From an uncultured virus (IMG/VR IMGVR_UViG_3300032322_002078) (taxonomy: Duplodnaviria > Heunggongvirae > Uroviricota > Caudoviricetes): 20,000 bases of DNA. The notes below the pieces were generated by a model. That model was not told where the DNA came from. It was given only the letters and a program-made list of their open reading frames with translations, and searched no databases. A program made the translations under genes and the position numbers. Of this stretch, positions 3,402-20,000 are shown piece after piece. How positions within the stretch are numbered: position 1 is the first letter of the stretch; each line of letters begins with the position of its first letter. The DNA is taken from the IMG/VR virus record IMGVR_UViG_3300032322_002078; one strand, given 5' to 3'.

Positions 3402-3793
3402 GCCAGGTATTTTTTTAATTCTTTTTCAGTTGTCGGCATCATGTGCACATTTGTTGCGTACTGATGATGAATGTAATCAGATATGGCCTCGTAAAACTCT
3501 ATCCGGATTTCAAACGGCATGAATTCAATCATTGTCATGAATTGATGCAGTTCTATTCTTTCTTCTCCCTTGGGATCGTAGTACCGAATGTAGGCATACA
3601 GGTAAGCCTCGTCAACTATTGCAAAACCATGTATTTCAAATATTTTATACATCTCCTGCCTCATTTTTGCAGGATTTACAGAAGATGTTCCGTGGTCTGA
3701 GTAAAACCCATCTATCTGTTCTTTAATGGGCTTTTCGCGGATCAGCGTTTTGCGCTTTTTTATCCCTGATTTGTTTGTTTGCCGTGGGCCCAT
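3353..3793 (-). CDS. Hypothetical protein (146 aa)
   Basis: ORF in the minus-strand operon with short overlaps on both sides. Confidence 0.7.
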   Translation of the reverse strand: MGPRQTNKSGIKKRKTLIREKPIKEQIDGFYSDHGTSSVNPAKMRQEMYKIFEIHGFAIVDEAYLYAYIRYYDPKGEERIELHQFMTMIEFMPFEIRIEFYEAISDYIHHQYATNVHMMPTTEKELKKYLAWKAKTIRVLKRSQES

Positions 3794-4284
3794 TTCTCTG
3801 TTCTGCTTAGCTTAACTTTGGATACGCGCTCTACTTGCTGTGGGGAAATGTACTGAGCCCGGATCTGGGCTAGGCTTTCCACAAGAGCTGGTATGCTCTG
3901 CGACATTGTTTTAATGAGATCTACACGACCTTTCTCTTCTTTAAAAGCCATTTCGATAGGATCTTTCTTTGGACCTTTTTTCTTTGGAGCGTCATCGTCG
4001 TCGTCATGACCGGCCTCCATCGATGCAGATGCCTCGCGAATACTGTCGTCTATAATTTCTTCCCGGGGGTCGGACTCACTCAAAAATTTCAATCGCTGCG
4101 ACTGGTACATCAGGGAAAGCGAGAGCGATTCATAGGCTTCGTATTCCAAAGAGCTGTAAAACCTAATGAGCTCAAGAACAGGCTTCATAGCTGGTTCTGA
4201 TTTCACTAGCTTCTCTAGTATCGATATGGCTTGTTCGGGTATATTTCCGGACTGCTGTGACTCTGTAGCTTTATTTTTGGCCAT
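3760..4284 (-). CDS. Hypothetical helical protein (~174 aa); weak candidate for terminase small subunit
   Basis: ATG at 4284 (MAKNKATES). Helical, charged composition. The TerS idea rests on position and size only. Confidence 0.65.
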   Translation of the reverse strand: MAKNKATESQQSGNIPEQAISILEKLVKSEPAMKPVLELIRFYSSLEYEAYESLSLSLMYQSQRLKFLSESDPREEIIDDSIREASASMEAGHDDDDDAPKKKGPKKDPIEMAFKEEKGRVDLIKTMSQSIPALVESLAQIRAQYISPQQVERVSKVKLSRTEKWAHGKQTNQG

Positions 4285-4287
4285 GTG

Positions 4288-4295
4288 CAAAGCTA
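4288..4295 (-). promoter_or_regulatory. Bacteroidota-type -7 element (TAGCTTTG) for the terminase operon
   Basis: TGCAAAGCTA on + is identical to the element at 10211-10220. It lies 3 nt from ATG 4284. Confidence 0.6.
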
Positions 4296-6470: not shown

Positions 6471-8633
6471 TTAAAATGGGGGGTCATCGGACAGTCCGAA
6501 GTCATCCACAAAGTTTCTGCTGTTGAATCCGTTGTTGTAGCGATCAGGTTCTTCGGCAACCGGTTTATTACCGACGGGCTTTCCGGTCTTCCAGAACTCA
6601 AAGATATCGAAGTCGTAGTAAGGTTGAGACGCATCGGCTTTAATCATGAATCTACCCCGCGACGGCTTGTAGATCATCTTGATGGGTTCTTCTTCCGGAG
6701 TGGGCCTGCCTCCGGTTTCCATGACCTTGATTTTGTCGACATGGATATCGGTGTACATCCAGTAGTCGGCGTTCTTGGTGTTGCGGTGAACCGTGATGAA
6801 ATCATCGGCGCGACTAGCGAATTTATTACCGCCCTCGATTTCATACATCTTCGGTGGCTTGTCTGGATCTCTGCCGACCCTGCGGGCGCCGTCCGTACCG
6901 GTGTGGGCATTGAGGTATATCGACACGCCGGTCCTTCTGATGAAGACCCTCATTTCAGTGGTGGCGGCGTAATCGTAGTCGTGTTTATTACCGCCTATCA
7001 TGCGGAGCTTCTTAGCTAGTTCGTCGTCTACCACAAGCGAGTTGTAGGGGTCAATCATGACGGCGTTGTAATGGCTTTCGGACAGCAGCTCTTCGGTGAT
7101 GTTGAGGATATCCCTGAAGCTGTAGACGTGCTCATTGGTGATGAATGTGAAGTGGTTCCGGATAAAGGCCTCGGCGCTTTGGAACTCGGCGTCACTGAAA
7201 GCCGACATCTGCTTGCCTGCATGGGTCTCCATGATCTTGCGGATGACGAATTCATAGTCGTTCTCGCCGGTATAGATCACCCACCGCCAGCCGTGAGCCA
7301 TGGCGCTGACCGCAGCCATGAACCACATCCAGGTCGACTTGCCGACATTAGCCAGGCCGTGTATGATGTTGAACTGGGCGGGTTTGAATCGCATGAAGTC
7401 ATCGATGTGGCGATGCCCCACACTAAGGCCTTCGGGAAGACTACCGCTACGCACCATGTTGAGGTAGGGTACGGCATTGGTGAAGTCACCGATAAATGAA
7501 CTTATATCGGAATTCGTGTTGTCGGGATCATCCATCTTGCTGTCGTCGGGGACCCGAACGGATTTGGCGGGACCGGGATCCTGCTGTTGGGCCGCCCCTA
7601 GCTTACCGTAACGGGTCTGAGCTGATTGTTTGGCGGATCCGTAGCCCAGCTCTTGCAGAGCTTGTATGGCGGCATGGGTATCGCCGCCGTGCTCCAACAT
7701 GGTGTAGATACCGAAAGGGCTGTAGGAAGGCGTCCTGCCGTTGTGCTCGGTTTCGAAAACCGTACTGGAACTAAACACCACAAGGCGATTGGTGTCGAGG
7801 TGGTAGTATGCGCTGTGCTCTCTGCTGTTATAAGGTTTTCCAGGCCTGAGTAGCTTGACTGTATTGGGGTTTGTGTTGCCTTTTGCGGTCCAGCCGTAGC
7901 TCTCCAGAAGTGTGATGCCATCGGTTCTGTTGTTGTAGTCATCCCATGGCGTGATGTCATTAGAGGCGATTTGAGAGCGTTTTGATGACTGGGTGGTACT
8001 AGACACCGGATCTTCGGTAAAGGTCTCGGAGAACGAACGCAAGGTGGCAATACAGGCATTATACTCGGCGGATGTCAACACCCCGATGTTGTCGAAATTG
8101 TTTTTGAGGATGCTGTATCCCGGTGACGGCGCCACCAGAAAATAACCTCCCTCGCTACGGGTTTCTATCAGGACGCGGGTTGCGGTCTTGATTTTGGGGT
8201 TGGATTTTTGGAGCTCACGGAGTTCGTCGGCACTGCAGTCCCGCATGGCGAGTTTTCGGTTTCCCGGTAGTTTTATGTCGGGTTCGACCTTGACGATGAA
8301 ATGGTAGCCTCCCGATACGGTTTTCTGAATGACGGACTTCTTCAGGACGCCTGGGCAGGTTTCGGCGAGTTTGTTCTTGACTCTTGTGGCCAGATCTGAG
8401 GTGAGATCGTATTTGGTGTCGATGTCGAAGCAGATCAGATTGCCGCTGACCTCTCCGGCGATGATGGCGATACCCCATGCGGAGGCCGTCAGGGAGTCGA
8501 TCTCGGCGCCGGGTATGTTGTGGGTATATCCATTGCGTTTGAATGCAACCAAGGGCTGCTTTTGCTGGTTTACGGGGATTACTGAGTACCCCAGCGATCT
8601 TAATTTTTTACTCTGTTCTGAATTCGCGGTCAT
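6471..8633 (-). CDS. Bifunctional primase-polymerase (Prim-Pol/AEP) fused to SF4 (DnaB/Twinkle-like) replicative helicase
   Basis: N-terminal AEP motifs FDID, TVSGGYH and IETRSEGGYFLVAPS. C-terminal Walker A GLANVGKS, Walker B MIDPYN, LNAH and KIK motifs. Acidic DDPPF tail. Confidence 0.9.
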   Translation of the reverse strand: MTANSEQSKKLRSLGYSVIPVNQQKQPLVAFKRNGYTHNIPGAEIDSLTASAWGIAIIAGEVSGNLICFDIDTKYDLTSDLATRVKNKLAETCPGVLKKSVIQKTVSGGYHFIVKVEPDIKLPGNRKLAMRDCSADELRELQKSNPKIKTATRVLIETRSEGGYFLVAPSPGYSILKNNFDNIGVLTSAEYNACIATLRSFSETFTEDPVSSTTQSSKRSQIASNDITPWDDYNNRTDGITLLESYGWTAKGNTNPNTVKLLRPGKPYNSREHSAYYHLDTNRLVVFSSSTVFETEHNGRTPSYSPFGIYTMLEHGGDTHAAIQALQELGYGSAKQSAQTRYGKLGAAQQQDPGPAKSVRVPDDSKMDDPDNTNSDISSFIGDFTNAVPYLNMVRSGSLPEGLSVGHRHIDDFMRFKPAQFNIIHGLANVGKSTWMWFMAAVSAMAHGWRWVIYTGENDYEFVIRKIMETHAGKQMSAFSDAEFQSAEAFIRNHFTFITNEHVYSFRDILNITEELLSESHYNAVMIDPYNSLVVDDELAKKLRMIGGNKHDYDYAATTEMRVFIRRTGVSIYLNAHTGTDGARRVGRDPDKPPKMYEIEGGNKFASRADDFITVHRNTKNADYWMYTDIHVDKIKVMETGGRPTPEEEPIKMIYKPSRGRFMIKADASQPYYDFDIFEFWKTGKPVGNKPVAEEPDRYNNGFNSRNFVDDFGLSDDPPF

Positions 8634-10087
8634 ATCTGTCCTCTTAGTTTGGTTCTGACATCGGCTCTGATGTCATCGATGGGGCGGGGTTGGTTATTGT
8701 GGTCGACGATTTCTACGCCGTACTGCAGTTTGGGGTTGAGTTCGGGGTCGCCTTTGAAGTAGATCTGCAGGACGTAGTTCTCGGCGTCTTGTTTTGTGCG
8801 GAAGCCCTGTTTGGCAGTTGGTTTGGGTTGGTCGGGTTTTTTGTAGATGCCCTGGCGGTCGTTGCGAACGAATGTCCCGATGCGCTTGCCGACGTCGAAG
8901 GCTTCGGCTTTGGATATCCTCGGCTTTCCGCTTGGCAGTGGTTCCATCCAGTGCGCGACGAAGTCCTCTACCAGGGTGTCGGTGTAGCGGTCCCGGAATC
9001 TGTTGAGCTCGGTACGGAGGTCGAGCTCGTTCCAATCCCGAAACGATTTTTTGCGCGGTTTGGGGTCGGCGCCGCCCTCTGGGTGTGTGTTGATTTCTTC
9101 CTGGCTTTTTGTTGGGTTTTGGGTTTTTGCAGAAAATGCGGTTTTCGCAGGTTCTCCTTTCTTTTCCCCTCTGCACTCCCCTTTGTTTACCTCTCCTAGA
9201 TATATATAAAATTTTTTTTTGAATGTAATATTGTTTTTTTTAATATTATTTTCTGAATTGTTTACTTTACTAAATTCTTTTAATAAATAATCTTTATATA
9301 TTAATCCTAAATAATTAATACTAATAACGCGCACACGTGCGAGAGCACCATTTTTTTTGAGTCTGCCGGCCGTCGTGTATTGCAGAATTCCGTTTTTTGC
9401 CGGTGTTACAATGCTGATTATGTGGCTTTTATGTTTTTCTACTTTTTCGACAAAAACTGATTCGGTTAGGTTGTTAGGTTTTTGAGTTTGTAGTGTTTCC
9501 GGGCTTTCTTGAATTTTGCTTACTGGCCGAGTTAGGTTATTAGGTTTTTTTTCACTGTTGTCGTTGCTTCTTTCTGCATCGGAAACCAAATAACCTAACT
9601 CGGCGACTTTTGGTACTGTTTGGCCATGGCCGTTTTCGACAAAAACTGATTCGGTTAGGTTGTTAGGTTTTTGAGTTTGTAGTGTTTCCGGGCTTTCTTG
9701 AATTTTGCTTACTGGCCGAGTTAGGTTATTAGGTTTTTGTTGATCGGAAGTCAGATTGAATTCAGAAGTATTGAAATATTCCTGCTCGGCTGATTTTCGC
9801 TCGGTTAGGTTGTTAGGTTTTTCTTGGCTTGACTGCGTAAGATTTTTGACGACGGGTCTGCCCCCTTTTCTGCCATTAAGTTTTGATGTCAGAATGCGTC
9901 TGTCGGATTTCTGTATTGCGGATTTCATTACCTCGACAATATCTTTTAAGTGCGAGGGGATCTCGATGTGGTTCTGCCGGAATGCGTATTCACACAGAGC
10001 ATCATAGAACACCAGTCTGTCGGCGTCGTCGAAAGATCGAATGATTGTGTAGTCCTGGCTTGATATCGCCGGAGTCTGTTTTGCCAT
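8630..10087 (-). CDS. Phage replication initiator-like protein (~485 aa; DUF6291-like N-terminus) with internal origin repeats
   Basis: ATG 10087 (MAKQTP) is preferred over 10198. YDALCEYAF...NGRKGGRP N-terminus, five KPNNLT repeats, an N/K/I-rich segment followed by KGECRGE, and ATGA coupling to the primase-helicase, like the lambda O-P arrangement. Confidence 0.75.
   Translation of the reverse strand: MAKQTPAISSQDYTIIRSFDDADRLVFYDALCEYAFRQNHIEIPSHLKDIVEVMKSAIQKSDRRILTSKLNGRKGGRPVVKNLTQSSQEKPNNLTERKSAEQEYFNTSEFNLTSDQQKPNNLTRPVSKIQESPETLQTQKPNNLTESVFVENGHGQTVPKVAELGYLVSDAERSNDNSEKKPNNLTRPVSKIQESPETLQTQKPNNLTESVFVEKVEKHKSHIISIVTPAKNGILQYTTAGRLKKNGALARVRVISINYLGLIYKDYLLKEFSKVNNSENNIKKNNITFKKKFYIYLGEVNKGECRGEKKGEPAKTAFSAKTQNPTKSQEEINTHPEGGADPKPRKKSFRDWNELDLRTELNRFRDRYTDTLVEDFVAHWMEPLPSGKPRISKAEAFDVGKRIGTFVRNDRQGIYKKPDQPKPTAKQGFRTKQDAENYVLQIYFKGDPELNPKLQYGVEIVDHNNQPRPIDDIRADVRTKLRGQI
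9197..9326. other. AT-rich tract; putative DNA-unwinding element of the replication origin
   Basis: ~130 bp of almost pure A/T inside a moderately GC-rich gene, next to the iteron array. Confidence 0.65.
9444..9738. repeat. 106-bp perfect direct repeat (9444-9549 and 9633-9738)
   Basis: Base-by-base identity. The offset of 189 nt keeps the reading frame. Confidence 0.95.
9465..9822. repeat. Iteron array GTTAGGTTRTTAGGTTTTT: five direct copies and one inverted copy
   Basis: Direct copies at 9465, 9531, 9654, 9720 and 9804 (19 bp each). Inverted 15/16 match at 9584-9599. Confidence 0.85.
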
Positions 10088-10212
10088 CCCGAGATTATTA
10101 AGCCCCAGACCCCTGTGTTTGGAATGAGCACAGCCGAGCTCGGTACACAGGAGAATGGGGCAGTTTTTATGTCTTTCTATGGGGCCCTGCAATTCCACCT
10201 ACAGGGTTGATG

Positions 10213-10220
10213 CAAAGCTA
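10213..10220 (-). promoter_or_regulatory. Leftward Bacteroidota-type promoter (-7 TAGCTTTG) for the replication operon
   Basis: Matches TAnnTTTG. A CTTG -33-like box lies 21 nt upstream (10242-10245). Confidence 0.65.
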
Positions 10221-10223
10221 TGG

Positions 10224-10250
10224 AAAGACTTTATATTTGTGCAAGTCTTT
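10224..10250. promoter_or_regulatory. Inverted repeat AAAGACTT-N11-AAGTCTTT; putative operator
   Basis: Perfect 8-bp arms overlapping the leftward promoter. The spacer contains a plus-strand TATATTTG (10232-10239). Confidence 0.45.
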
Positions 10251-10665: not shown

Positions 10666-10673
10666 TATATTTG
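10666..10673 (+). promoter_or_regulatory. Rightward -7 element (TATATTTG)
   Basis: TAnnTTTG 25 nt upstream of ATG 10699. Preceded by the inverted repeat TAACGCGT-N6-ACGCGTTA (10631-10652). Confidence 0.55.
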
Positions 10674-10698: not shown

Positions 10699-11295
10699 AT
10701 GCTAGGAAAGCAAGAAGCTATGGAATTATGGAAAAAATATTACTTGCACACTGCAAACTCACTAAAGTGCCTGGGAAACAACGACCGTAACTACTTGGCA
10801 TTCAGGCGTTTGAAGCTGAATAATCACGTAAAATACTCACCCTCAAGAACTTACCTAAAACCTAGCTCTCACTTACGAGTCCGAGCCGCTGTTAAGTACA
10901 AATATATCGACTCAATGCCCTTAGTATCAGAGGTTTACAGTAACGCAAATCATTACGCGGTCAAGCTAGTAAATAACTTTGAATATCTATGTGCGTGGCA
11001 CGGCATAGCCGTCGACGCCGCATGTAAAAATATGCGCAAACAAGGCATAAACATAAGCGCTAGGGCGCTAAGTGACTACAAGCGAATCAGCACGATTTTC
11101 AACCCCGTTTATCAATTTGCCTTGGCAATTTATTTTGGTGAACCTTATGCAAGAATGGTGTCTCAGGACTACAGTTCACAAAAACTAAAACCTTACAGGT
11201 CCATACCACCCCAAACCCTATATAAAGACCTGATTAACAGTCCTTACCACGTCCGTGAGCGTTACCGACTCAAGGAATTCCTACCCAAAGCCTAA
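10699..11295 (+). CDS. Basic protein (~198 aa), possible Xre/HTH-like regulator
   Basis: ATG 10699 lies downstream of the promoter element. The segment GINISARALSDYKR...ALAIYFG resembles an HTH fold. Very K/R/Y-rich. Confidence 0.6.
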   Translation: MLGKQEAMELWKKYYLHTANSLKCLGNNDRNYLAFRRLKLNNHVKYSPSRTYLKPSSHLRVRAAVKYKYIDSMPLVSEVYSNANHYAVKLVNNFEYLCAWHGIAVDAACKNMRKQGINISARALSDYKRISTIFNPVYQFALAIYFGEPYARMVSQDYSSQKLKPYRSIPPQTLYKDLINSPYHVRERYRLKEFLPKA

Positions 11296-11462
11296 CCAAA
11301 AACATAACAAGCACATTATCAGCATCTTAAAGAATGCCTTTCATTTATACTTTTAAGACAATTTAGGTATAATTACAGGTACTTGTGCCCAAAACAGTGC
11401 ACCCCAAACAAAAAATAATCAGCCTGATAATCAGCACGTTAACACCCAAACTAAAAAAATAA

Positions 11463-11493
11463 TTTGGAGGTTTCAACATTCTAACTACCTTTG
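11463..11493 (+). promoter_or_regulatory. Consensus Bacteroidota primary-sigma promoter, likely the main early promoter
   Basis: TTTG (11463-66), 19-nt spacer, TACCTTTG (11486-93), with an A-tract upstream. Confidence 0.85.
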
Positions 11494-11504
11494 TTGCCGT
11501 TAAC

Positions 11505-11512
11505 GTTCTTTA
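11505..11512 (+). promoter_or_regulatory. boxA-like antitermination element (GTTCTTTA)
   Basis: One mismatch to the boxA core GCTCTTTA, immediately after the predicted transcription start. Confidence 0.5.
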
Positions 11513-12103
11513 TACCACGGGTTTTGAGTGCTTAATATATATACCATGCGTGACGCCTGCTATAGCACAACACAAACAGTCCCAAAATTAGTTTTCAAAC
11601 CAACGTCGTGAGACGTCGATAAACTAGGCAGGTCTAACTGAATTCGGAACCTGAATAAAATTAACTGAATTACTACGGGCGCACTTTAATAGCATGTTTT
11701 GCGCCGACTAAAAAAAATAAAACTGCACGTCGTTATTGCGTTTCCGCATCGACTGAATAAATAAGCGTTTATTCAGGTAAGCCGATAAAAATAACACAGG
11801 TTAGTCACCTAGGCTGCATGAATATCAACAAACCGAATCGACAAAATACATAAGGTTGTTGCAGGGCAGCGCTACACTACAGGCAAGGCAAGCCACACAT
11901 CGTAGTTAGTAAACTAGGCAACCGCGACGCAAAATCGTTAGGTTGAACGAAGGCACAAAACCACTAGCGAATTCATTTTCGCCGCGACGTGGGGACGGCA
12001 TAAGTGACCAAATGTAAAAGTGAGGGCAGTGCTCACAATAATAAACGTGGCGGTTATTTCAGGCGGGTGACACGCAACATGAACTAACCTTAAAAAAATA
12101 TAT

Positions 12104-12183
12104 AGGCAGCGCTTAGATAGTGCAGCCCCGTTTTACGGGGGACGTGGCTAGGCTAATAGAATCGAATTCAGCGCTGCCTACCA
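12104..12183 (+). ncRNA. tRNA-like element with 7-bp acceptor stem, discriminator A and CCA
   Basis: AGGCAGC/GCTGCCT-A-CCA, an ATCGAAT T-loop-like heptamer and a CCCC-GTTTTAC-GGGG hairpin. The D-arm is non-canonical. Confidence 0.4.
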
Positions 12184-12209
12184 AACAATTAATCAAATAA
12201 AATCAGCCT

Positions 12210-13415
12210 ATGAAAAAAACCAATATCTACGTAGTGAACGGCAAAACATTCACTAACGGACGCGAAGCCTGCCAATACGCCTGGGACGGCGGTTATTTAC
12301 CGAACCGAAGCCGTCCCGAATTGACAGATAAATTCAATCCTTTAATGATGCTGCAAACCGCGGCGCAAAACGGGTGCGAATTGTTTGTGAACGGCAAACC
12401 TTTTACCACGGGCGCCTCGGTGCCTAATCCTGAAAAACAGGAACCCGCGATTAAATCATCTAATAATAATAATAATAATCAGCCCATGAAGCCAAACCAA
12501 AACCTAGAGCAACCCGCGCAGCAATTAGCCGACGCCCTGCAAAACCTGCTAAGCAGTCAAACCCCTAAGCTAGACGAAAGTCGTGTAGTTGAATTAATCA
12601 AACAGCATAGCGTCGACGAAAGCCTGCTTATTGACCTCATTCAAGCCCATAGCGGTGTGAAGGTGGTCGAAATCAAAAAGCCCGACGTACCCAACATCAA
12701 AGTCGGTGTTCAGCACAAGAATTTCGAACGCCTAGTCCAATCAATTTCGGCGGGTGTTAATGTAATGCTAGTCGGCGAGGCGGGCAGCGGGAAATCGAGC
12801 GCCGCCGCGAATGTAGCCAAAGCGCTGAATTTAGATTTCGGCTTTATTAGTTGTGGACTCACAACAACTAAGTACGAATTCAGCGGGTTTATCGACGCTT
12901 CGGGCAGGTTCGCAAGCACTGAATTCTTTCGGGTGTTCACCAATGGCGGGGTGTTCCTCCTAGACGAATTCGACGCCGCTAGTCCCAACGTCGGCATAGC
13001 GCTTAACGAAGCCCTAGCCAATAAGCGAGCTAGTTTCGCCGACGGCTGCTATGATGCCCACCCCGATTTCATCTGTATCGCAGCCGCCAACACTTACGGC
13101 AACGGCGCCACGATGGATTTCGTCGGTAGGCAGAAATTAGACGCCACCACACTAGACAGGTTCGTGGTGTTGAATTGGGATATCGACGAGGATTTCGAGA
13201 ACGCCATCTCGCCCAATAAAGACTGGACTCGGAAAGTACAAAAGTATCGCGCAACCGTTAAGCGCCTAGCTATCCGACACAGCGTTACCACTAGGGCAAG
13301 TATCAACGGCGCCAAGTTAATCGCGGCGGGCATACCTGAGAATGAGGTCGTGGATATGGTTATCTTCAAAGGTCTGAGCACAGACGTCCGCAAACAAATA
13401 CAGGCAGCGCTTTAA
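12210..13415 (+). CDS. MoxR/CbbQ/CobS-like AAA+ ATPase
   Basis: Walker A GEAGSGKS, Walker B FLLDE, sensor 1 AAANTYGNGA, arginine finger LDATTLDRF, sensor 2 TTRA. Confidence 0.9.
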   Translation: MKKTNIYVVNGKTFTNGREACQYAWDGGYLPNRSRPELTDKFNPLMMLQTAAQNGCELFVNGKPFTTGASVPNPEKQEPAIKSSNNNNNNQPMKPNQNLEQPAQQLADALQNLLSSQTPKLDESRVVELIKQHSVDESLLIDLIQAHSGVKVVEIKKPDVPNIKVGVQHKNFERLVQSISAGVNVMLVGEAGSGKSSAAANVAKALNLDFGFISCGLTTTKYEFSGFIDASGRFASTEFFRVFTNGGVFLLDEFDAASPNVGIALNEALANKRASFADGCYDAHPDFICIAAANTYGNGATMDFVGRQKLDATTLDRFVVLNWDIDEDFENAISPNKDWTRKVQKYRATVKRLAIRHSVTTRASINGAKLIAAGIPENEVVDMVIFKGLSTDVRKQIQAAL

Positions 13416-13431
13416 TCAGCGCTGCTTTTTT
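13402..13431 (+). terminator. Intrinsic terminator-like hairpin at the end of the AAA+ gene
   Basis: GCAGCGCT-TTAATC-AGCGCTGC followed by T6. The stop codon lies in the loop. Confidence 0.7.
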
Positions 13432-13456
13432 ATTAATCCATAAAACATAAACAGCC

Positions 13457-14341
13457 ATGAGTTTATTCAATCAGCTAGTGCCGAAATACTATCCCGAGCA
13501 CAGCGTATTCGAATCGGTTTCCTCACCTAGTCTAAGTGACTACGTGAAATTCCTCACCACAACCAAGCCCGATAACGGCAGACCTGTCCTACCCGATAGT
13601 TACGAACTCTGCATGTCAGAAGCCGAAGAGCGCAGGCAGTGGGCGGGTGGTAGTATGGCAGACGCCATGCGAATAATAACTCAGGGTTACGAGCCCGAGG
13701 CGCTTAAGGAAATCGAATTCCAAACACTAGAGCAGCAGGGCGCACTAGAGATACATCGCGATATGATGGGATGTGTTCCCGACGTCGGTGCCTATCTAGC
13801 GGGTGCACCCGATTGCATGGTTGACTTCAGTCTTACAGCGCCGAAGAAATTCGCTTCGCTTTACATTTCGTATTCCTATAGCTGGCAAATAGATGCCGAT
13901 GTGGTTGAATACTACAGCGCCAAGATTTACAACCTCTACAACACCTTACTAGCGCAGAACTACGAGGTCGAAATCATTGCGTATTCAGTAATCACACTAG
14001 GCAGCGCGAAAAACGACAGAATGATTGTGCACAGCTTTCCGCTTGCGCAATTCGGATACAAGATATCGCCTCAATTACTAGCGGCGGTGTTTCACCCCAC
14101 GTTCTTACGCAGAATCAGGGTGCCGTATATGTTTATGAACCACAGCAGCGATTCCGCTGGAGTCACTAGAAGCATACCTGCTGGACTCCAGCTAGAGCTT
14201 AATCAGAACGGCGCCGTCGTGTTGAAATCCCTGAGTGAAATCTCTGGACTTATCGACCAAAAGTTATCGAAGGAATCCAAAAAGAAAGCCATCGACGACA
14301 CCATCAGCGCAGCGCTGAAACAACTAGCTGATAATAATTAA
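13457..14341 (+). CDS. Probable VWA-like partner of the AAA+ ATPase (294 aa)
   Basis: Adjacent to a MoxR-type ATPase. Contains a DVGAYLAGAPDCM motif, a degenerate MIDAS-like ISYSYS after a beta strand, and HPTFLRR. Confidence 0.65.
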   Translation: MSLFNQLVPKYYPEHSVFESVSSPSLSDYVKFLTTTKPDNGRPVLPDSYELCMSEAEERRQWAGGSMADAMRIITQGYEPEALKEIEFQTLEQQGALEIHRDMMGCVPDVGAYLAGAPDCMVDFSLTAPKKFASLYISYSYSWQIDADVVEYYSAKIYNLYNTLLAQNYEVEIIAYSVITLGSAKNDRMIVHSFPLAQFGYKISPQLLAAVFHPTFLRRIRVPYMFMNHSSDSAGVTRSIPAGLQLELNQNGAVVLKSLSEISGLIDQKLSKESKKKAIDDTISAALKQLADNN

Positions 14342-14372
14342 CTAAGACCGAGGGGTGCGACTCCATACGCAC
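14342..14372 (+). repeat. Intergenic structured repeat B, copy 1
   Basis: CTAAGACCGAGGG-GTGCG-ACTCCATA-CGCAC, 28/31 identical to 16781-16811. Confidence 0.9.
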
Positions 14373-14379
14373 ATTCAAA

Positions 14380-14601
14380 ATGAAAAATGTAGTTAAACTA
14401 ACCCAATTCAGATGGGACGAACCGCATGCACCTGTTTTAATCGGGACAGAGAGCATCATCAGAGCCGAAGAGTTTGTGATGAAACACCACGACGGCAGGT
14501 GGATGGTGGTTACTAAAATCCAAAGCAGAGGCGCTATGGCTGTAACAACCTACGTCACGGAGTCAGTTGAAGAAATACACAACGAAATAACGAAACCATA
14601 A
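14380..14601 (+). CDS. Hypothetical protein (73 aa)
   Basis: Co-oriented ORF in the early cluster. Confidence 0.75.
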   Translation: MKNVVKLTQFRWDEPHAPVLIGTESIIRAEEFVMKHHDGRWMVVTKIQSRGAMAVTTYVTESVEEIHNEITKP

Positions 14602-14613
14602 AAACACACAGCC

Positions 14614-15246
14614 ATGAACGACGCATATATTTACAGCGAAAAAATAACCGTGACCATCGCAGGGAAAGCAGAGCTAGTCCGCTACGAGCACATCGGAACC
14701 ACGGAGAATGAAGGACACGACACCCATGCCGTTATCCACAGAGACCTAGCGCATGTTTTCAGAACCGCTAGCGAAGCCTGGGCTAGAGCCAACCGCCTAC
14801 CTGCGGCTCCCAATATGCTCAACGCCACCATCCCGCTAGACATATACGAAGAATGGGCTAGGAACCCCGAGGGTAAGAATATCTACGCGGAGCCCGATGG
14901 CATCGACACCTTGGGTTATGATGCCCTATGCCTGTATGCATGCCTTCGCACTCAGATTCGCGTAGCCGATAGCAGTGTTCACCCCAATCCAGCCGAGGCG
15001 CTACTAGGCTTCCTAGAGCTGTCAGGCATGGAGAGCTCCGACATCATAGATGCAGAGCTTCGTGAAATCCTATCCGACCGCAGTCATCCCGAGCACGCCG
15101 AGGTATGGGAGAACTGTCTCGCGGTGATGATAGTGAAAGACAGAGAGCAAAACGCTTACAAACTAGCGTTCAATGAGCATCTTTATCTTATCCCCGTAGG
15201 CATTCCCATACCTAAACAATACTATACTGAATTGAATCATGGCTGA
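14614..15246 (+). CDS. Hypothetical protein (210 aa)
   Basis: ORF with the recurring ACAGCC-ATG leader. Confidence 0.8.
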   Translation: MNDAYIYSEKITVTIAGKAELVRYEHIGTTENEGHDTHAVIHRDLAHVFRTASEAWARANRLPAAPNMLNATIPLDIYEEWARNPEGKNIYAEPDGIDTLGYDALCLYACLRTQIRVADSSVHPNPAEALLGFLELSGMESSDIIDAELREILSDRSHPEHAEVWENCLAVMIVKDREQNAYKLAFNEHLYLIPVGIPIPKQYYTELNHG

Positions 15247-15445
15247 TTTAAGACTCGAAACAGGGATGGACGTCTTCAAGGCGTCCGCCCTGCTAGAGGG
15301 TTTTTATTATGAAAACCCTACAGCCCAGCAAATCCAAGAAGCTAAAGAATTCCTAAACCGACAGACATGGAGACATTATATATCGTCAAAGACAAATCAG
15401 GAAGAGGTTTCCGACCTCAGCAGCACGACCGCAGCTCTGTTTTAG
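15239..15445 (+). CDS. Hypothetical protein (68 aa)
   Basis: 8-nt overlap with the upstream gene and 79-nt overlap with the next ORF. Confidence 0.5.
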   Translation: MADLRLETGMDVFKASALLEGFYYENPTAQQIQEAKEFLNRQTWRHYISSKTNQEEVSDLSSTTAALF

Positions 15446-15576
15446 AACTCCTTGAATACCTAGGCGCTACCGACGACGATGGCGAACCCATTACGGACGA
15501 CAACCTCGATGAGGTCTTGCCCGAGGGCGCCGAGCTCGACCTAGGCGGCACCACAATTTTAGCAGTACGAACTTAA
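15367..15576 (+). CDS. Small acidic hypothetical protein (69 aa)
   Basis: D/E-rich ORF filling the gap to the next gene. Confidence 0.65.
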   Translation: METLYIVKDKSGRGFRPQQHDRSSVLELLEYLGATDDDGEPITDDNLDEVLPEGAELDLGGTTILAVRT

Positions 15577-15588
15577 ATACGAACACAC

Positions 15589-15774
15589 ATGGACTATTTC
15601 CAGCATCCCGACAGAATCCCCGATGACATCCAAGCCGTTTTGTTTACTTGCGAAGACCCTGATGACTACAGTCAGCTAGAGCAAACCCGCATGGCTTGCG
15701 TAGCGCTTGGATGGGACTTCGATTATGACTTGAATTCAAACCCTTTTAATCTAAAACCAATAAAACCCCAATAG
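15589..15774 (+). CDS. Small acidic hypothetical protein (61 aa)
   Basis: Tightly packed ORF with an AC-rich leader. Confidence 0.75.
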   Translation: MDYFQHPDRIPDDIQAVLFTCEDPDDYSQLEQTRMACVALGWDFDYDLNSNPFNLKPIKPQ

Positions 15775-15776
15775 CA

Positions 15777-16712
15777 ATGAAAAAAGTATTTAGCAGCCCC
15801 GATGACGTCACTCACTTGTTTGCGCAACGCAGCCAAGAAGAAGCCCGTACTTCTAGCAATTCTGTATACATGCAGCAGAGCTGGAATTCGAAAAAACCAT
15901 ACGCCGACCTGATTTACTCCTATGGCAGGCATTATTTGCTAGGTGTGTTTCTTGATGCAGCCGACAGCAGAGAGATATTGATTATAAACGACAGCGGCTA
16001 CAGTGTTTCGACATCTAGGCACATAAGCTCTTTGCGTAGCGCGTCCTCACACCTCGAGACCTACGGGCTTACGGAATACGGACTCCGTCATGTGCACAGT
16101 CGAATCAATAACCTTTACGAAAAGCTACTTAACGCAAGGAAGCCCGAAATGTATGTTGCGGCTATAGTGAAGCTAGCCGACAACCTGAACGCATTCAAAG
16201 ACAAGACAGGGCGCTATCTGATAAACGATGGCGACAGGAGCATGAATTTACTCAAGCCATCAGAGCTAACCAAGGAACACAAAGGCATGCTCAAGCACAT
16301 CAAGCAATGGCTGAGCTGTTTGAACCCTGAGCAAATCCGAGCCGCTGGCGAAGCCGCTAGGCAAGCCGCCATCAAAGAAGCCGCTAAGCAAGTCAGGCGT
16401 GAGAAAAAACTACTAGCGAAGTGGCTCAGCGGTGAATCCAACGGCTCGGTCTACGGTTTAAGCGAGGACTACCTCAGGCTCAACGCCAACAAGACCATGG
16501 TGGAGACCACGAAAAACGTATCGGTCAGCATACAGGAAGCCGCCAAGCTCTACAAGCTCATACAGGCAGGAGTCGACATCAGGGGTTATGTTATCAATGG
16601 CTACACCGTGACCAGTATCAACGGCAGTCTTAACATAAATTGCCACAGCATCAATATCAAGAACATGCATAAGGTCGGCAAGACCATACTTAAAATCCTA
16701 GAATCCAAGTAA
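15777..16712 (+). CDS. Hypothetical phage protein (311 aa)
   Basis: Long ORF with YSYGRHY and YSVSTSRH segments and an Ala/Lys-rich helix. Function unknown. Confidence 0.85.
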   Translation: MKKVFSSPDDVTHLFAQRSQEEARTSSNSVYMQQSWNSKKPYADLIYSYGRHYLLGVFLDAADSREILIINDSGYSVSTSRHISSLRSASSHLETYGLTEYGLRHVHSRINNLYEKLLNARKPEMYVAAIVKLADNLNAFKDKTGRYLINDGDRSMNLLKPSELTKEHKGMLKHIKQWLSCLNPEQIRAAGEAARQAAIKEAAKQVRREKKLLAKWLSGESNGSVYGLSEDYLRLNANKTMVETTKNVSVSIQEAAKLYKLIQAGVDIRGYVINGYTVTSINGSLNINCHSINIKNMHKVGKTILKILESK

Positions 16713-16718
16713 AGCGAA

Positions 16719-16764
16719 CCCCTGCTGCGACATTGCTTAATCGGTCTCAGAAGCCGAGCAGGGG
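16719..16764 (+). repeat. Intergenic structured repeat A, copy 1
   Basis: CCCCTGC-TGCGACATTGCTTAA-TCGGT-CTCAGAA-GCCGA-GCAGGGG. Confidence 0.9.
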
Positions 16765-16780
16765 CAAATTAATTCATAAT

Positions 16781-16811
16781 CTAAGACCGAGGGATGCGGC
16801 TCCATACGCAT
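16781..16811 (+). repeat. Intergenic structured repeat B, copy 2
   Basis: CTAAGACCGAGGG-ATGCG-GCTCCATA-CGCAT. Confidence 0.9.
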
Positions 16812-16819
16812 GTAATACC

Positions 16820-17056
16820 ATGACAACAGAATTATACGAATTACAAGAGATTCGGCAATCAGAAGACTACAAAGGTCTAACCTCCTACCTAGCCGTGGCT
16901 ATCGCCGAAGGCTTCTGCGAAGGCGAGGGCGCATCACAACGGCAGCAGCAAGCCGCTTGGCAATGGCTGCACGACACAAGAAAGGCTTACTCCTTACAGG
17001 GTTGGTTCGGGCGCACAGCAACACAATTGATAGAAGAAGGAATTATAAACCCATAA
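16820..17056 (+). CDS. Hypothetical phage protein (78 aa)
   Basis: ATG 16820 is preferred because the TTG extension runs through the structured repeats. Contains AWQWL...SLQGWFGRTA. Confidence 0.8.
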   Translation: MTTELYELQEIRQSEDYKGLTSYLAVAIAEGFCEGEGASQRQQQAAWQWLHDTRKAYSLQGWFGRTATQLIEEGIINP

Positions 17057-17068
17057 GAAACCTACACC

Positions 17069-17575
17069 ATGGCAAATACTTGCAATAACTCAATCTATTT
17101 CTACGGAAAAGACCTCAGCAAAATCAAAGAAATTATTGCTGACGCAATCAGAACCAATGACAAACTCCAGCAGGGCTGGCTTCCGGAATTCGCGAAGCCC
17201 GAGCACTGTCTTGCGCGATACTTTTTTGACGTCTGCATAAACCATGTGACCGAGGGCGAAGAGCTAGCGGTGAGCTGCTGGACTAAATGGGCTCCGCCTT
17301 TAGAAGAGCTAGTGGCAATCTGCAAGGAGGCAAATGTGTCTTGCCTGTGCCTGTACGATGAACTCGGGTTCCTGATTTACGGTCAGTTTCAATACGATGT
17401 CAGCACGGATACGCAGAAAGACATATCTCTGACCGACGAAGACTTCGACAGGGTGCAGGAAGACAAAGAAAGCGACGTCTACATTTTCGATGGAGAGGTA
17501 GTGGAGTCATGCTACACGGCTTACGCAGAAATACTTGACCAGAAGCTAGAAAAAGAAAACCAACTAACAATTTAA
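17069..17575 (+). CDS. DUF1281/YubB ferredoxin-like domain protein
   Basis: MANTCNN start, WTKWAPP and LYDELG motifs, recognised by eye. Confidence 0.7.
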   Translation: MANTCNNSIYFYGKDLSKIKEIIADAIRTNDKLQQGWLPEFAKPEHCLARYFFDVCINHVTEGEELAVSCWTKWAPPLEELVAICKEANVSCLCLYDELGFLIYGQFQYDVSTDTQKDISLTDEDFDRVQEDKESDVYIFDGEVVESCYTAYAEILDQKLEKENQLTI

Positions 17576-17587
17576 AAACAAAATAAG

Positions 17588-17911
17588 ATGACAACAAAAG
17601 AAGCACAAAACACAGTCTTATTCACAAGAGCGCAAAGACTGAATAACGAGTGTACACATGAGCAGTATTACTCACAATTTGTAAACGAATACATTCTAAA
17701 AACTGTAAATTCAAGGCTATCTAAAGACAAGATAAAAGCGGCCTTGCAAAAAGGCAAAAATCTAAATTCAATTCCTTTATCAACTTGGGATTCAATCGCA
17801 CGTAATTTATACGATGTGTCTTCAAAAATGAAATTAGCTGGCGACTATTTAACCCTGTCAGGGGGTGTGTGCATTGCTAAGCAAGCGGCACGAATGTTAG
17901 TTTCTGAATAA
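17588..17911 (+). CDS. Hypothetical protein (107 aa)
   Basis: Co-oriented ORF, more AT-rich than its neighbours. Confidence 0.8.
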   Translation: MTTKEAQNTVLFTRAQRLNNECTHEQYYSQFVNEYILKTVNSRLSKDKIKAALQKGKNLNSIPLSTWDSIARNLYDVSSKMKLAGDYLTLSGGVCIAKQAARMLVSE

Positions 17912-17920
17912 CCCTTCAAC

Positions 17921-17964
17921 CCTCGCTGCGACATTGCTTAGAAGCGCTCAGAACGCTTGCGAGG
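17921..17964 (+). repeat. Intergenic structured repeat A, copy 2
   Basis: CCTCGC-TGCGACATTGCTTAG-AAGCG-CTCAGAA-CGCTT-GCGAGG. Confidence 0.9.
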
Positions 17965-17989
17965 TGCTAAACCTTAAACATTTACTAGT

Positions 17990-18367
17990 ATGAAAACACT
18001 TGCACAACAACTGGCCTCAAGAATCCAGGCTTACAAGAACTGCGTAAAAGCAGGTAACGAACTCTACAGAGACATACACAAAAATAAAATAGAAGAGCTC
18101 TGTCAGCTGCTACCTAATGGCAGCGGTATTGACTCAGGTGTAGAGCTGATAATACGGGACTGCGACTCCGAAAAGCTAGTCTTTAGTTTTGGCTTCCACC
18201 ACATGGACGAGCACGGAGGTTACGATGGATGGACGCAGCACACCTTAATAGTGACGCCATCCTTCTCAGGGATAAACCTAAAGATAACAGGCAAGAATAG
18301 GAACGGGATAAAAGAATACCTGCATGACTTGTTCTATCACGTCTTTACTCAAAAACTAACGGATTAA
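17990..18367 (+). CDS. Hypothetical phage protein (125 aa)
   Basis: ORF containing LPNGSGIDSG and FHHMDEHGGYDGWT. Confidence 0.85.
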   Translation: MKTLAQQLASRIQAYKNCVKAGNELYRDIHKNKIEELCQLLPNGSGIDSGVELIIRDCDSEKLVFSFGFHHMDEHGGYDGWTQHTLIVTPSFSGINLKITGKNRNGIKEYLHDLFYHVFTQKLTD

Positions 18368-18374
18368 TAAAGCC

Positions 18375-18542
18375 ATGAAAGCAGACATAACCCCCGACGA
18401 GGTAAATAAGCTCTACAAGAAGCTGGACAACAAGCATTTCTTTATAGTTGTTTTTGGAACCAAAAGATTCCATCAAGTCTCTGATGAAGTTTTGAAAAAA
18501 ATGCACGATTACCTAGTAAAACGAGTTAAACAAACCAACTGA
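18375..18542 (+). CDS. Small hypothetical protein (55 aa; not in the ORF track)
   Basis: Translated by hand as MKADITPDEVNKLYKKLDNKHFFIVVFG...VKQTN*. It has an AAAGCC-ATG leader and fills the gap exactly. Confidence 0.7.
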   Translation: MKADITPDEVNKLYKKLDNKHFFIVVFGTKRFHQVSDEVLKKMHDYLVKRVKQTN

Positions 18543-18550
18543 CTTATACC

Positions 18551-18925
18551 ATGAAAAAAACTCATTATTACCTATTCGGCTCGCAAGCCGTTAGCATCCT
18601 GATGGACAGTGATGAACCCAATGCTCTTGAGCAAATAGCGGATGCCGAACATGCGTTATTCTCTTATAACGAAGACTTTCAGCATCCCACCGAATTGCTA
18701 CTGGCCTACGATGGATGGGGCGCATTCACTGAGATATCAGAGGAGACCTACCAAGAAATCACAGCGCTGAATGACATCGATGGCAAATCCGACGAACTAG
18801 TTAGCGCCCTGATTAAAGGCGAAACCGTAGTAGTGCGGGATAGATTCCTGCCTGCCGTAACCAAGAAGCTGCGCGAAATCAAAAAGAATTGCACCATAAC
18901 GCTTTCCCAAATCAAAAACCCATGA
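18551..18925 (+). CDS. Hypothetical protein (124 aa)
   Basis: Co-oriented ORF with ATGA overlap to the next gene. Confidence 0.8.
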   Translation: MKKTHYYLFGSQAVSILMDSDEPNALEQIADAEHALFSYNEDFQHPTELLLAYDGWGAFTEISEETYQEITALNDIDGKSDELVSALIKGETVVVRDRFLPAVTKKLREIKKNCTITLSQIKNP

Positions 18926-19245
18926 GCACAACCCCCATCTACAAATTCCCTAGGCGCTGCACGCTCACGCGCACAGGTATGCATGCCGGATTCGTAATTG
19001 AAGAACCCATGTTAAGTAACATCGGAGAAGACGGGCATCTTTACGCCCTAACTCAAGACGGCGCAGAGTCTCTATGTCAGATGCTCTACGGAGAATCCTA
19101 CCTAGAGCTCGCCGAATCCGACTTGGCGTACTACACCGAATGGGATGCAGAAGACCCTGCTGAACAACTCTACATCAGCCCGAATCCCGACGGCAGCAAT
19201 GCTATATCTTCACAGCTCTACAATAAACACTTAACCCTTCAATAA
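18922..19245 (+). CDS. Acidic hypothetical protein (107 aa)
   Basis: Start 18922 is chosen for the ATGA coupling and its AAAAACCC leader. Confidence 0.75.
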   Translation: MSTTPIYKFPRRCTLTRTGMHAGFVIEEPMLSNIGEDGHLYALTQDGAESLCQMLYGESYLELAESDLAYYTEWDAEDPAEQLYISPNPDGSNAISSQLYNKHLTLQ

Positions 19246-19256
19246 AAACAACAGCT

Positions 19257-19865
19257 ATGTACACCATCATCTTTCTTATCCGCGGCATCGTCGCCCAAAC
19301 CAAATTATTTTATCACCTGCACAACGCCGACGCCGAGTTCGACCGACTAGCGGCTTCGCTCATACCGGACTACAGAGAAACCATAGGTTATCTGTCCGAC
19401 ATCGAGGAGCGCATTGACCTCACTCGAATAAGGTTAGACCACGAAGGCAAGGAGATAATATACAGCCGAGAGTGCAGTGAACCTATGGATTCCAAGACCA
19501 CCCACGTTCTCACAGGAGACCTCGCGGCTCATTTTTATTCAGAGGGAGGTATAGCGGCTATACTAGAAGAGCTGCCGCATCAGAAGTTCGGGTTGAGCAG
19601 CTACGATAACGGAAGCCATCCCGAAGACATTATGAATATCACCATTGGTGAGTCCGCGTTCCAAATAATTGAAAAATGGGAATTCGATTTGTTATTCGCA
19701 ATAATGCATCATAGCCATTCGGATTGGCAGACCATAAGCACAATCCTCGAAAAGTCTAGGGAACTAGCACTAGGAATAAGTTTAGACCTCAGCGGAATTC
19801 CCGAAGGCTGCCAGGGTAACTACATCTATTATTTCGAGAACAGAGTTTTCTACCCCCTGATCTAA
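19257..19865 (+). CDS. Acidic hypothetical protein (202 aa)
   Basis: ORF with an ACAGCT-ATG leader. Confidence 0.8.
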   Translation: MYTIIFLIRGIVAQTKLFYHLHNADAEFDRLAASLIPDYRETIGYLSDIEERIDLTRIRLDHEGKEIIYSRECSEPMDSKTTHVLTGDLAAHFYSEGGIAAILEELPHQKFGLSSYDNGSHPEDIMNITIGESAFQIIEKWEFDLLFAIMHHSHSDWQTISTILEKSRELALGISLDLSGIPEGCQGNYIYYFENRVFYPLI

Positions 19866-19884
19866 CCTCAAAAACCCCATCCAA

Positions 19885-20000
19885 ATGAAGATATCTAAAA
19901 TCATCCCCGTAAAGCTGCGCAACATCAAGCAACCCACTAGCTGGGCGGAGTACATCGTGTTCAATCAAGTGCCGGAAAGCGACTCATTGAACTCTTCGAA
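19885..20000 (+). CDS. Hypothetical protein, truncated by the window end
   Basis: ATG 19885 (MKISKIIPVKLRNIKQ...), open to the window edge. Confidence 0.6.
   Translation, partial: MKISKIIPVKLRNIKQPTSWAEYIVFNQVPESDSLNSS

Follow-up and report, generated by a model that had tools for sequence, protein, structure and literature searches.

A compact, covarying, sense-strand structured element recurs between small cistrons of tailed phages

We analyzed a 20,000-nucleotide stretch of an uncultured tailed virus of the Caudoviricetes (IMG/VR record IMGVR_UViG_3300032322_002078; the whole stretch is hereafter called the window) and describe a repeated element, family A, which can be read directly in two intergenic copies on its plus strand, at positions 16719–16764 and 17921–17964. 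Family A is a discrete element of approximately 46 nucleotides (nt) that folds on the plus strand only. Through an uninterrupted 3΄ strand, a clamp helix (P1) is stacked with an apical hairpin (P2), and the two together display 22 invariant or near-invariant unpaired bases, namely the one-sided bulge U-GCGACAUUGC-UUA-R and the loop CUCAGAA. The element is real, novel and well supported, and sequence comparisons place it in at least three phage lineages without BLASTP-level protein similarity. Comparisons of this kind also indicate that its edges are the points at which related genomes switch from unlike to like sequence, the element mostly staying with the downstream gene. As to function, we tentatively favor, with rather less than even confidence, a cis-acting RNA leader or processing module in an early polycistronic transcript, effects on RNA stability included.

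Each copy consists of the 5΄ arm of P1 (6–7 base pairs, bp), the invariant 14-mer TGCGACATTGCTTA, one purine, the 5΄ arm of P2 (5 bp), the loop CTCAGAA and the 3΄ arms P2΄ and P1΄, and in both window copies P2΄ abuts P1΄ with no base in between (Table 1). In the 20-kb window, the 14-mer has an exact match at the two family A sites only. A preliminary description made from the letters alone had reported two intergenic copies with an exact 14-mer and loop, identically spaced and 6–9 nt past a stop codon, and stems that differ yet pair fully; the coordinates bear this out in both copies, and two further stem sets extend it. Copy 1 begins 6 nt 3΄ of the TAA at 16710–16712 and ends 55 nt before the next ATG, and copy 2 begins 9 nt 3΄ of the TAA at 17909–17911 and ends 25 nt before the next ATG. 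Across all four genomic contexts, the element starts 6, 9 and 7 nt past the stop codon in three, and in the remaining one it lies 34 nt past, with another hairpin in between; from its 3΄ end to the next ATG there are 20–55 nt. The letters 3΄ of P1΄ are CAAATTAA and TGCTAAAC, and no T-run stands behind either copy. Stop-codon read-through or recoding was rejected as a function, since the window copies lie in different frames relative to the upstream stop codons.

Evidence for the fold was obtained from an alignment of five sequences that represent four distinct stem sets (the two window copies, the overlapping IMG/VR records G001 and G002, and the metagenome contig L132). Standard pairs occupy 95% of the 60 cells of this alignment, and both sides have changed in 10 of the 12 pairs. 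None of 500 column shuffles equalled the observed covariation, and when the 3΄ partners were slid by 1–3 columns as a control, pairing fell to 38–45%. The same 21 bases (14-mer and loop) recur at the same spacing in all four stem sets. Given the alignment as its sole input, RNAalifold recovered P1 and P2 together with an invariant 3-bp mini-hairpin (GCG-ACAU-UGC), and the consensus is a small three-way junction that reads P1, U, P1a, UUAR, P2 and no linker. Moreover, L132 is detected, at 55.6 bits (E = 2.6e-12), by the covariance model R1, which was made before L132 was known and with L132 left out. In a control, 29 of 157,190 background positions, true copies counted in, have the bare architecture (a P1 with six or more Watson–Crick pairs plus a flush inner hairpin). 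The repeated 14-mer by itself is not significant in 20 kb; the combined features are far beyond chance. Single-sequence minimum-energy folds always keep P1 and contain P2 in only 2 of 4 contexts, and the z-scores of single-sequence folding (–1.2 to –2.4) are unremarkable, so the structural case rests on covariation and not on energy.

The closing pair of P2 is U·G in three of the five sequences, and the mini-hairpin has an invariant G·U. These pairs become C·A on the other strand, and the fold is therefore specific to the plus strand, which has the sense of the mRNA; the T16745·G16753 pair of copy 1, whose dependence on the plus strand had been pointed out in the preliminary description, becomes such a C·A mismatch on the minus strand. 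The element is co-oriented with the flanking open reading frames (ORFs) in four of four contexts. The earlier suggestion of a structured single-strand motif under selection is thus strengthened by two further independent and fully paired stem sets.

Family A is very rare in the collections scanned. An exact scan of IMG/VR and of metagenome contigs for the pattern 14-mer-N6-loop yielded two IMG/VR records and one JGI contig, whereas the 14-mer alone has at least 119 loci, and among the matches listed the family A architecture is present in G001/G002 only. The architecture is likewise confined to G001/G002 in a looser IMG/VR scan for ACATTGCTTA-N4-8-loop (21 loci), a degenerate-loop scan (12 loci) and a scan that allowed degeneracy toward the 3΄ end of the 14-mer (7 loci), and the composite pattern has no match in the genome_contigs species-genome collection. 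Of the two outcomes that the preliminary description had named as refuting it, neither was seen: the exact scan led to further copies with pairing preserved, in G001/G002 and L132, and no Rfam family matched the elements scanned. In blastp at 1e-3, no protein match is shared by the window, G001, L132 and HannyBb (an Escherichia coli phage considered below), and the window has one weak match to G002 (E = 8e-5). The large terminases of the window and G001 both belong to phrog_6681, which makes these two phages distant kin rather than strangers. A partial 14-mer, CTCTGCGACATTGTTTTAATGAG, with two mismatches at 3896–3918 on the plus strand, antisense to ORF 3760–4290, is scored by R1 at 10.5 bits (E = 1.8) and is probably a chance match.

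The hosts are inferred to be Bacteroidota-like from two sequence features. Shine-Dalgarno-like motifs are scarce before ORFs of at least 90 amino acids (4/41, 3/65 and 0/5), and the motif TAnnTTTG is over-represented both in the window (20 versus 13.5 ± 3.6) and in G001 (64 versus 41.3 ± 6.4). By the prim-pol protein, the closest isolates are Cellulophaga phages, with 28–35% identity across part of the protein; blastn of 12001–20000 against the phage collection gave no match, and neither did tblastn with the large terminase (TerL). An R1 search of three Bacteroidota genomes found no copy of the element, and the exact 14-mer occurs in 4 of 401 Bacteroidota genomes versus 4 reversed-control matches, with the architecture in none. 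Against an rRNA operon of Chryseobacterium, the best duplex of the 15-mer bulge reaches –14.2 kcal/mol, compared with –14.9 ± 1.6 kcal/mol for shuffled 15-mers, and its complementarity is thus not unusual.

To examine the edges of the element, metagenome contigs from lake, soil and wetland runs that share 10–15% of the window's words were compared with positions 15700–18400 at 80% likeness; X4 and X5 gave identical results and were counted as one. Among the sequencing runs listed as containing this DNA, there is no RNA run. In X3 record 10 and X4/X5 records 19/27 the match begins at 16717 after unlike letters, and in X4/X5 records 21/29 it begins at 17918. In a lake metagenome (X2 record 6), 350 other letters stand between 17576 and 17918 and replace ORF 17588–17911, and in X2 record 7 (127 nt) positions 17917–17964 alone match, with seven differences and with unlike flanks on both sides. 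An X3 contig has 189 unlike letters and then a match from 16768, the downstream region being present there without the element. Among the seven junctions listed, the element accordingly stays with the downstream sequence in five, stands alone in one and is missing in one, and in none does it stay with the upstream gene only. In the relatives' contigs, similarity on the side of the upstream ORF 15777–16712 ends at 16717, and ORFs 16820–17056 and 17990–18367 remain linked to the element; the joint 16816–17066 has a short side of 25 letters only. A similar pattern is seen between G001 and G002, which cannot be aligned before the preceding stop codon, so that the upstream gene has been swapped; past the stop codon they are identical at 150 of 152 positions, over a stretch that takes in a short hairpin and the element and reaches into the next gene.

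Junctions at both edges, together with the contig in which the element alone lies between unlike flanks, would suit a folded single-stranded DNA (ssDNA) site, that is, a hairpin with which a recombinase, an HUH nickase or a primase moves or primes cassettes, comparable to attC or ssDNA initiation signals. Such a site could also explain the fixed orientation relative to the cassette genes; folded attC sites have covarying stems and conserved unpaired bases, and T·G pairs are tolerated in DNA hairpins. Integron attC sites are marked by a nearby integron integrase and by R and L core sites; the ORFs of the window and the 23 ORFs of G001 that were scanned gave no match to an integrase family (both genomes are incomplete), and a GTTRRRY core was not seen by eye at the 3΄ edge of the element. 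Against an ssDNA site, genes for an integrase, a Rep/HUH protein or the like were not detected in the window, among 23 large G001 ORFs (PHROGs) or among six of these (Pfam), and the prim-pol/helicase of the window has no G001 counterpart by blastp. The co-orientation with transcription in four of four contexts is explained more simply by RNA, and junctions at a conserved intergenic block are also predicted by ordinary homologous recombination, as at the promoter-early stem-loop (PeSL) motifs of T4-type phages (PMC2839356 and PMC4122927). We thus consider an ssDNA site quite unlikely, and the shuffling of cassettes can be a by-product of any conserved intergenic block.

The PeSLs of T4-type phages are the system closest to family A in evolutionary behavior. 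They combine a sigma70-like promoter with an effective terminator stem-loop, and cassettes are shuffled at these conserved intergenic blocks (Arbiol et al., 2010, PMC2839356; Comeau et al., 2014, PMC4122927). Both are small conserved intergenic stem-loop motifs repeated among small non-essential genes, and both are found where genes are inserted, deleted or replaced between related phages; family A indeed lies at end points of gene replacements. Family A differs in that it lacks the promoter and terminator, in that its conserved bases are unpaired while its stems covary, and in that it recurs in phages without BLASTP-level protein similarity. Consensus scans call neither copy promoter-like (sigma70) nor terminator-like but do call the terminator at 13402–13427 of this operon, and no TAnnTTTG motif was seen by eye in or just 3΄ of the element. 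The view taken at first that family A is not a terminator, there being no U-tract, is therefore upheld.

Family A was further compared with known classes of RNA element, none of which accommodates it as a member. A cmscan of the window with Rfam 15 at E up to 10 returned five weak matches, none at the family A copies, and the same scan of five loci, including the locus of the G001 copy (L002), returned four weak matches, none at the element, in agreement with the initial impression that the family was not a recognized one. An RNase III site such as those of T7 early mRNA or of SP82, which had been named as a candidate, resembles family A in being a conserved sense hairpin with an internal loop between early cistrons and without a U-tract. 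RNase III substrates need about two helical turns of double-stranded RNA, whereas P1 and P2 together amount to 11–12 bp in all five sequences, which is shorter than such a substrate; the 15-nt bulge is one-sided, and the invariance sits in the unpaired bases. This candidate is thus a poor fit. The hairpin promoter of the N4 type, another early candidate, is the least favored: such promoters have a stem of 5–7 bp and a 3-nt loop on the template strand, whereas family A has a 7-nt loop and wobble pairs that form only on the non-template plus strand. Family scans found no giant virion RNA polymerase gene in the 20-kb window of this incomplete genome, and the 1380- and 1955-amino-acid proteins of G001, likewise incomplete, have no Pfam match and no DFDxD motif. 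A preprint on phi14:2 reports that early transcripts are preceded by no common motif (10.1101/2020.03.07.982082).

A mimic of a tRNA minihelix was also considered, with P1 as the acceptor stem, P2 and its 7-nt loop as the T arm, and RNase P or another tRNA enzyme processing the transcript. Helices of 7 and 5 bp with a 7-nt loop equal the acceptor/T-arm stack of tRNA, P2΄ adjoins P1΄ directly, the U behind P1 would be the counterpart of U8, the mini-hairpin would be a reduced D-like hairpin, and ACCA follows the G001 element as well as a simpler hairpin in the same operon. However, ACCA is absent after the other three copies, and compared with the tRNA consensus the CUCAGAA loop has no equivalent of T-loop A58 and there is no GG for the elbow contact. 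ARAGORN at default thresholds (modes -t and -mt) called no tRNA or tmRNA gene in the four contexts, and lowered thresholds gave inconsistent calls on the opposite strand only. We therefore regard a tRNA-like function as very unlikely.

A further alternative is an RNA operator bound by a regulator that does not cut, either a translational repressor or activator of the downstream gene or a modifier of RNA polymerase like those of put and nut sites. The structural features that lead to the processing reading serve this one equally, linkage to the downstream gene suits a leader operator, and there are two copies in one operon. As in the nut sites of lambda (boxA and boxB) and the put sites of HK022, which are cis-acting RNAs of early phage operons, a conserved linear block is followed by a hairpin with a conserved loop, and the outline recalls boxA plus boxB. 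Unlike these sites, family A is enclosed by a clamp helix and is not promoter-proximal; by eye its 14-mer does not fit the boxA consensus, and family scans recognized no N-like protein among the window proteins. Furthermore, the element lies 20–55 nt before the start codons and thus does not overlap the initiation region, the sole canonical terminator seen in the operon is 3.3 kb upstream of copy 1, and blastp revealed no candidate protein in common. On balance, an operator seems unlikely to us, although it deserves a minor share of the probability.

We return to the favored reading, in which family A would act as RNA: within a polycistronic transcript, it would be a movable module that serves the following cistron as leader or punctuation. 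The stems would merely hold the invariant bases in a fixed shape for a trans-acting factor common to the hosts or phages, most likely an endoribonuclease that cuts in or beside the element, and this cut would separate the fate of the downstream cistron from that of its upstream neighbor and leave the former with a structured 5΄ end. As a by-product, the 21 or more shared bases could serve as a recombination point at which gene cassettes are shuffled, as PeSL motifs do. Conserved hairpins between early phage cistrons have their classical role as processing sites, and a processing site would account for the linkage of the element to the downstream gene.

Several observations weigh against this reading. 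Classical RNase III is an unlikely factor because the helix is too short, and cleavage inside the bulge would undo P1. Across divergent phages 22 unpaired bases stay invariant, which exceeds the needs of most protein sites and agrees no less well with a catalytic core or a nucleic-acid partner. By blastp, no candidate partner protein is common to the carriers, which is weak evidence given the lengths of the window (20 kb) and L132 (2.7 kb). The syntenic relatives L129–L131, whose proteins have 42–53% amino-acid identity to the neighboring proteins, gave no R1 match, so the element is dispensable. In the copy 1 of relatives, the 3΄ arms bear the substitutions 16754 C>T, 16757 A>G and 16758 G>A, with the 5΄ partners not among the letters listed; two of the three would still pair as wobbles, and the third would break the innermost pair of P1. 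Finally, the family comprises only four distinct stem sets, and the junctions, being those among the matches listed, come from short contigs (127–679 nt).

The excess of invariant unpaired bases bears in particular on another alternative, a new small self-cleaving ribozyme, in which a 46-nt three-way junction would cut the early RNA between cistrons without protein. Its active site would be formed by the invariant junction and loop bases, and freely covarying stems around such bases are the typical pattern of small ribozymes; the size of about 46 nt agrees, and hammerhead, twister, pistol and hatchet ribozymes share with family A a length of ~45–55 nt, a junction architecture, a scattered intergenic distribution, and invariant unpaired nucleotides within covarying stems. 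Self-contained activity, which needs no partner, would explain why sense intergenic copies are scattered over phages without common BLASTP-level proteins, and the sampled host genomes contain no copies. However, family A matches no Rfam ribozyme model at E up to 10 and would thus have to be a new class, and its junction strands (U, UUAR and none) are unlike the hammerhead core. No convincing pseudoknot between loop and bulge was seen by eye, the longest complementary run being 3 bases, and the family is very rare in the collections scanned. To our knowledge, where conserved small motifs of this type have been assayed, most have proved not to cleave. We give self-cleavage a small chance. About as small a chance belongs to the wider proposal that family A is a new self-cleaving class with 22 invariant bases. 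In phages of Bacteroidota-like hosts, it would mark the 5΄ boundary of mobile cassettes and move with them, cut early polycistronic RNA into single-gene messages and supply homology for shuffling.

A look-alike of family A occurs in lambdoid prophages of E. coli. In it, GGTGGT and ACCACC enclose the identical 14-mer together with an inner hairpin of 10 bp. It is present in phage HannyBb, at L012 145–203, at L128 4139–4206 and in many E. coli prophages, where it belongs to the early left operon, precedes the ydfC/dicF/dicB module and adjoins an ORF for a membrane protein on the minus strand. Of 5426 complete E. coli genomes, 800 match at least 80% of a 161-nt query that spans the look-alike, and the look-alike was not found in K-12 Qin. 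Membership in the family is supported by this place in the early operon, by the background control, in which this architecture is rare by chance, and by a mosaic junction 2 nt 5΄ of the 14-mer in L092. Conversely, L092 lacks the 5΄ arm of P1, R1 gives the look-alike only 16.4 bits, and Salmonella phage 118970_sal3 and mEp460 retain the 3΄ arm of the hairpin and ACCACC...GTGGT without the 14-mer or the 5΄ arm. We do not count the look-alike as a member, and consider a relationship to family A possible but doubtful.

The window is part of a tailed phage genome with the large terminase gene at 1002–2912 and a prim-pol/helicase gene at 6471–8633, both on the minus strand, and small plus-strand ORFs follow one another from 12210 to its end. 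This plus-strand operon, divergent from the replication and packaging genes, is accessory and probably early. The family A copies occupy two of its four sizeable gaps, both more than 4 kb into the operon, and the G001 copy is situated in a short operon of small ORFs divergent from primase/helicase genes, which mirrors the window. The genes next to the copies, the parts of each copy and the other carriers are summarized in Table 1.

Table 1. Parts of the family A copies, the ORFs beside them and the other carriers of the element
Feature	Position	Strand	Sequence or annotation
Copy 1, whole	16719–16764	+	P1 of 7 bp; model R1 76.4 bits
Copy 1, P1/P1΄	16719–16725/16758–16764	+	CCCCTGC pairs with GCAGGGG
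Copy 1, 14-mer	16726–16739	+	TGCGACATTGCTTA; contains predicted mini-hairpin GCG-ACAU-UGC
Copy 1, linker	16740	+	A
Copy 1, P2/P2΄	16741–16745/16753–16757	+	TCGGT pairs with GCCGA; U·G closing pair
Copy 1, loop	16746–16752	+	CTCAGAA
Copy 2, whole	17921–17964	+	P1 of 6 bp; model R1 71.9 bits
Copy 2, P1/P1΄	17921–17926/17959–17964	+	CCTCGC pairs with GCGAGG
Copy 2, 14-mer	17927–17940	+	TGCGACATTGCTTA
Copy 2, linker	17941	+	G
Copy 2, P2/P2΄	17942–17946/17954–17958	+	AAGCG pairs with CGCTT
Copy 2, loop	17947–17953	+	CTCAGAA
ORF upstream of copy 1	15777–16712	+	311 amino acids; phrog_7247, function not assigned; stop 6 nt before element
ORF downstream of copy 1	16820–17056	+	78 amino acids; weak DUF7417 match; preceded by second repeat 16776–16810
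ORF upstream of copy 2	17588–17911	+	107 amino acids; phrog_25437
ORF downstream of copy 2	17990–18367	+	125 amino acids; no family match
G001 (44.7 kb) and G002 (8.5 kb), overlapping IMG/VR records			CCCCTT, 14-mer, A, ACCGT, loop, GCGGT, AAGGGG
L132, metagenome contig (2.7 kb)			CTCACCG, 14-mer, A, CTGAG, loop, CTCAG, CGGTGAG

A second repeat family was found on the plus strand at 14337–14371 and 16776–16810 (89% identity), just before the ATGs at 14380 and 16820, and its latter copy begins 11 nt after family A copy 1. It consists of a conserved CTAAGACCGAGGG followed by a 5-bp hairpin (RUGCG-RCUCCAUA-CGCAY), the outer pair of which is G-C in one copy and A-U in the other. In the same operon, a canonical and bidirectional-looking intrinsic terminator with a 10-bp stem followed by TTTTTTATT stands at 13402–13427, 3΄ of an AAA-ATPase ORF, and the phage thus uses ordinary terminators elsewhere. 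The arms GGCAGCGCT and AGCGCTGCC, at approximately 12107–12180, reappear in this terminator; they belong to a stretch of ~900 nt without a convincing ORF (11296–12209), which is rich in inverted repeats and has weak Rfam matches only (InvR, 20.5 bits). Positions 9444–9822 contain iteron-like direct repeats, in which a 109-nt sequence is present twice, at a distance of 189 nt, and the 22-nt unit TCGGTTAGGTTGTTAGGTTTTT five times. They lie inside or at the end of ORF 8630–10198 (minus strand), adjoin the divergent promoter region, and could be a replication origin. Back-to-back TAnnTTTG motifs are present at 10213–10239 (TAGCTTTG on the minus strand and TATATTTG on the plus strand), and a further TATATTTG at 10666–10673 precedes an ORF that starts near 10700; these motifs resemble -7 promoter elements of the Bacteroidota type.

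Some features of the other carriers and relatives were also recorded. In the small-gene operon of G001 that contains the family A copy, a simple hairpin (CCCCCTC-12 nt-GAGGGG) followed by ACCA stands after a stop codon (L154 102–132, minus strand), and the family A stem of G001, CCCCTT/AAGGGG, is likewise followed by ACCA. The ORF 3΄ of the L132 copy (L132 225–1018) has a weak DUF7277 match and overlaps an ORF of 107 amino acids with a cytidine/dCMP-deaminase zinc motif (PF00383, E = 5.9e-10). In the relative L129, positions 7903–8432 have a 9-nt periodicity, with 38 overlapping repeat copies inside an ORF, which points to a collagen-like protein made of tripeptide repeats.

Little is understood of the signals for RNA processing and translation in Bacteroidota, and for phages with hosts of this type only a few structured RNA elements have been defined, to which family A, if confirmed, would be an addition. 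As a compact and portable 46-nt module, it brings together intercistronic RNA signals and the mosaic exchange of accessory genes, which are mostly treated as separate subjects. Given its pattern of stems and loops, it is a clean candidate for either a ribozyme or an RNA–protein pair of high specificity, and each of these would be usable as a genetic part. Even on the most ordinary reading, family A is a concrete new motif absent from Rfam, with a structure backed by compensatory changes.

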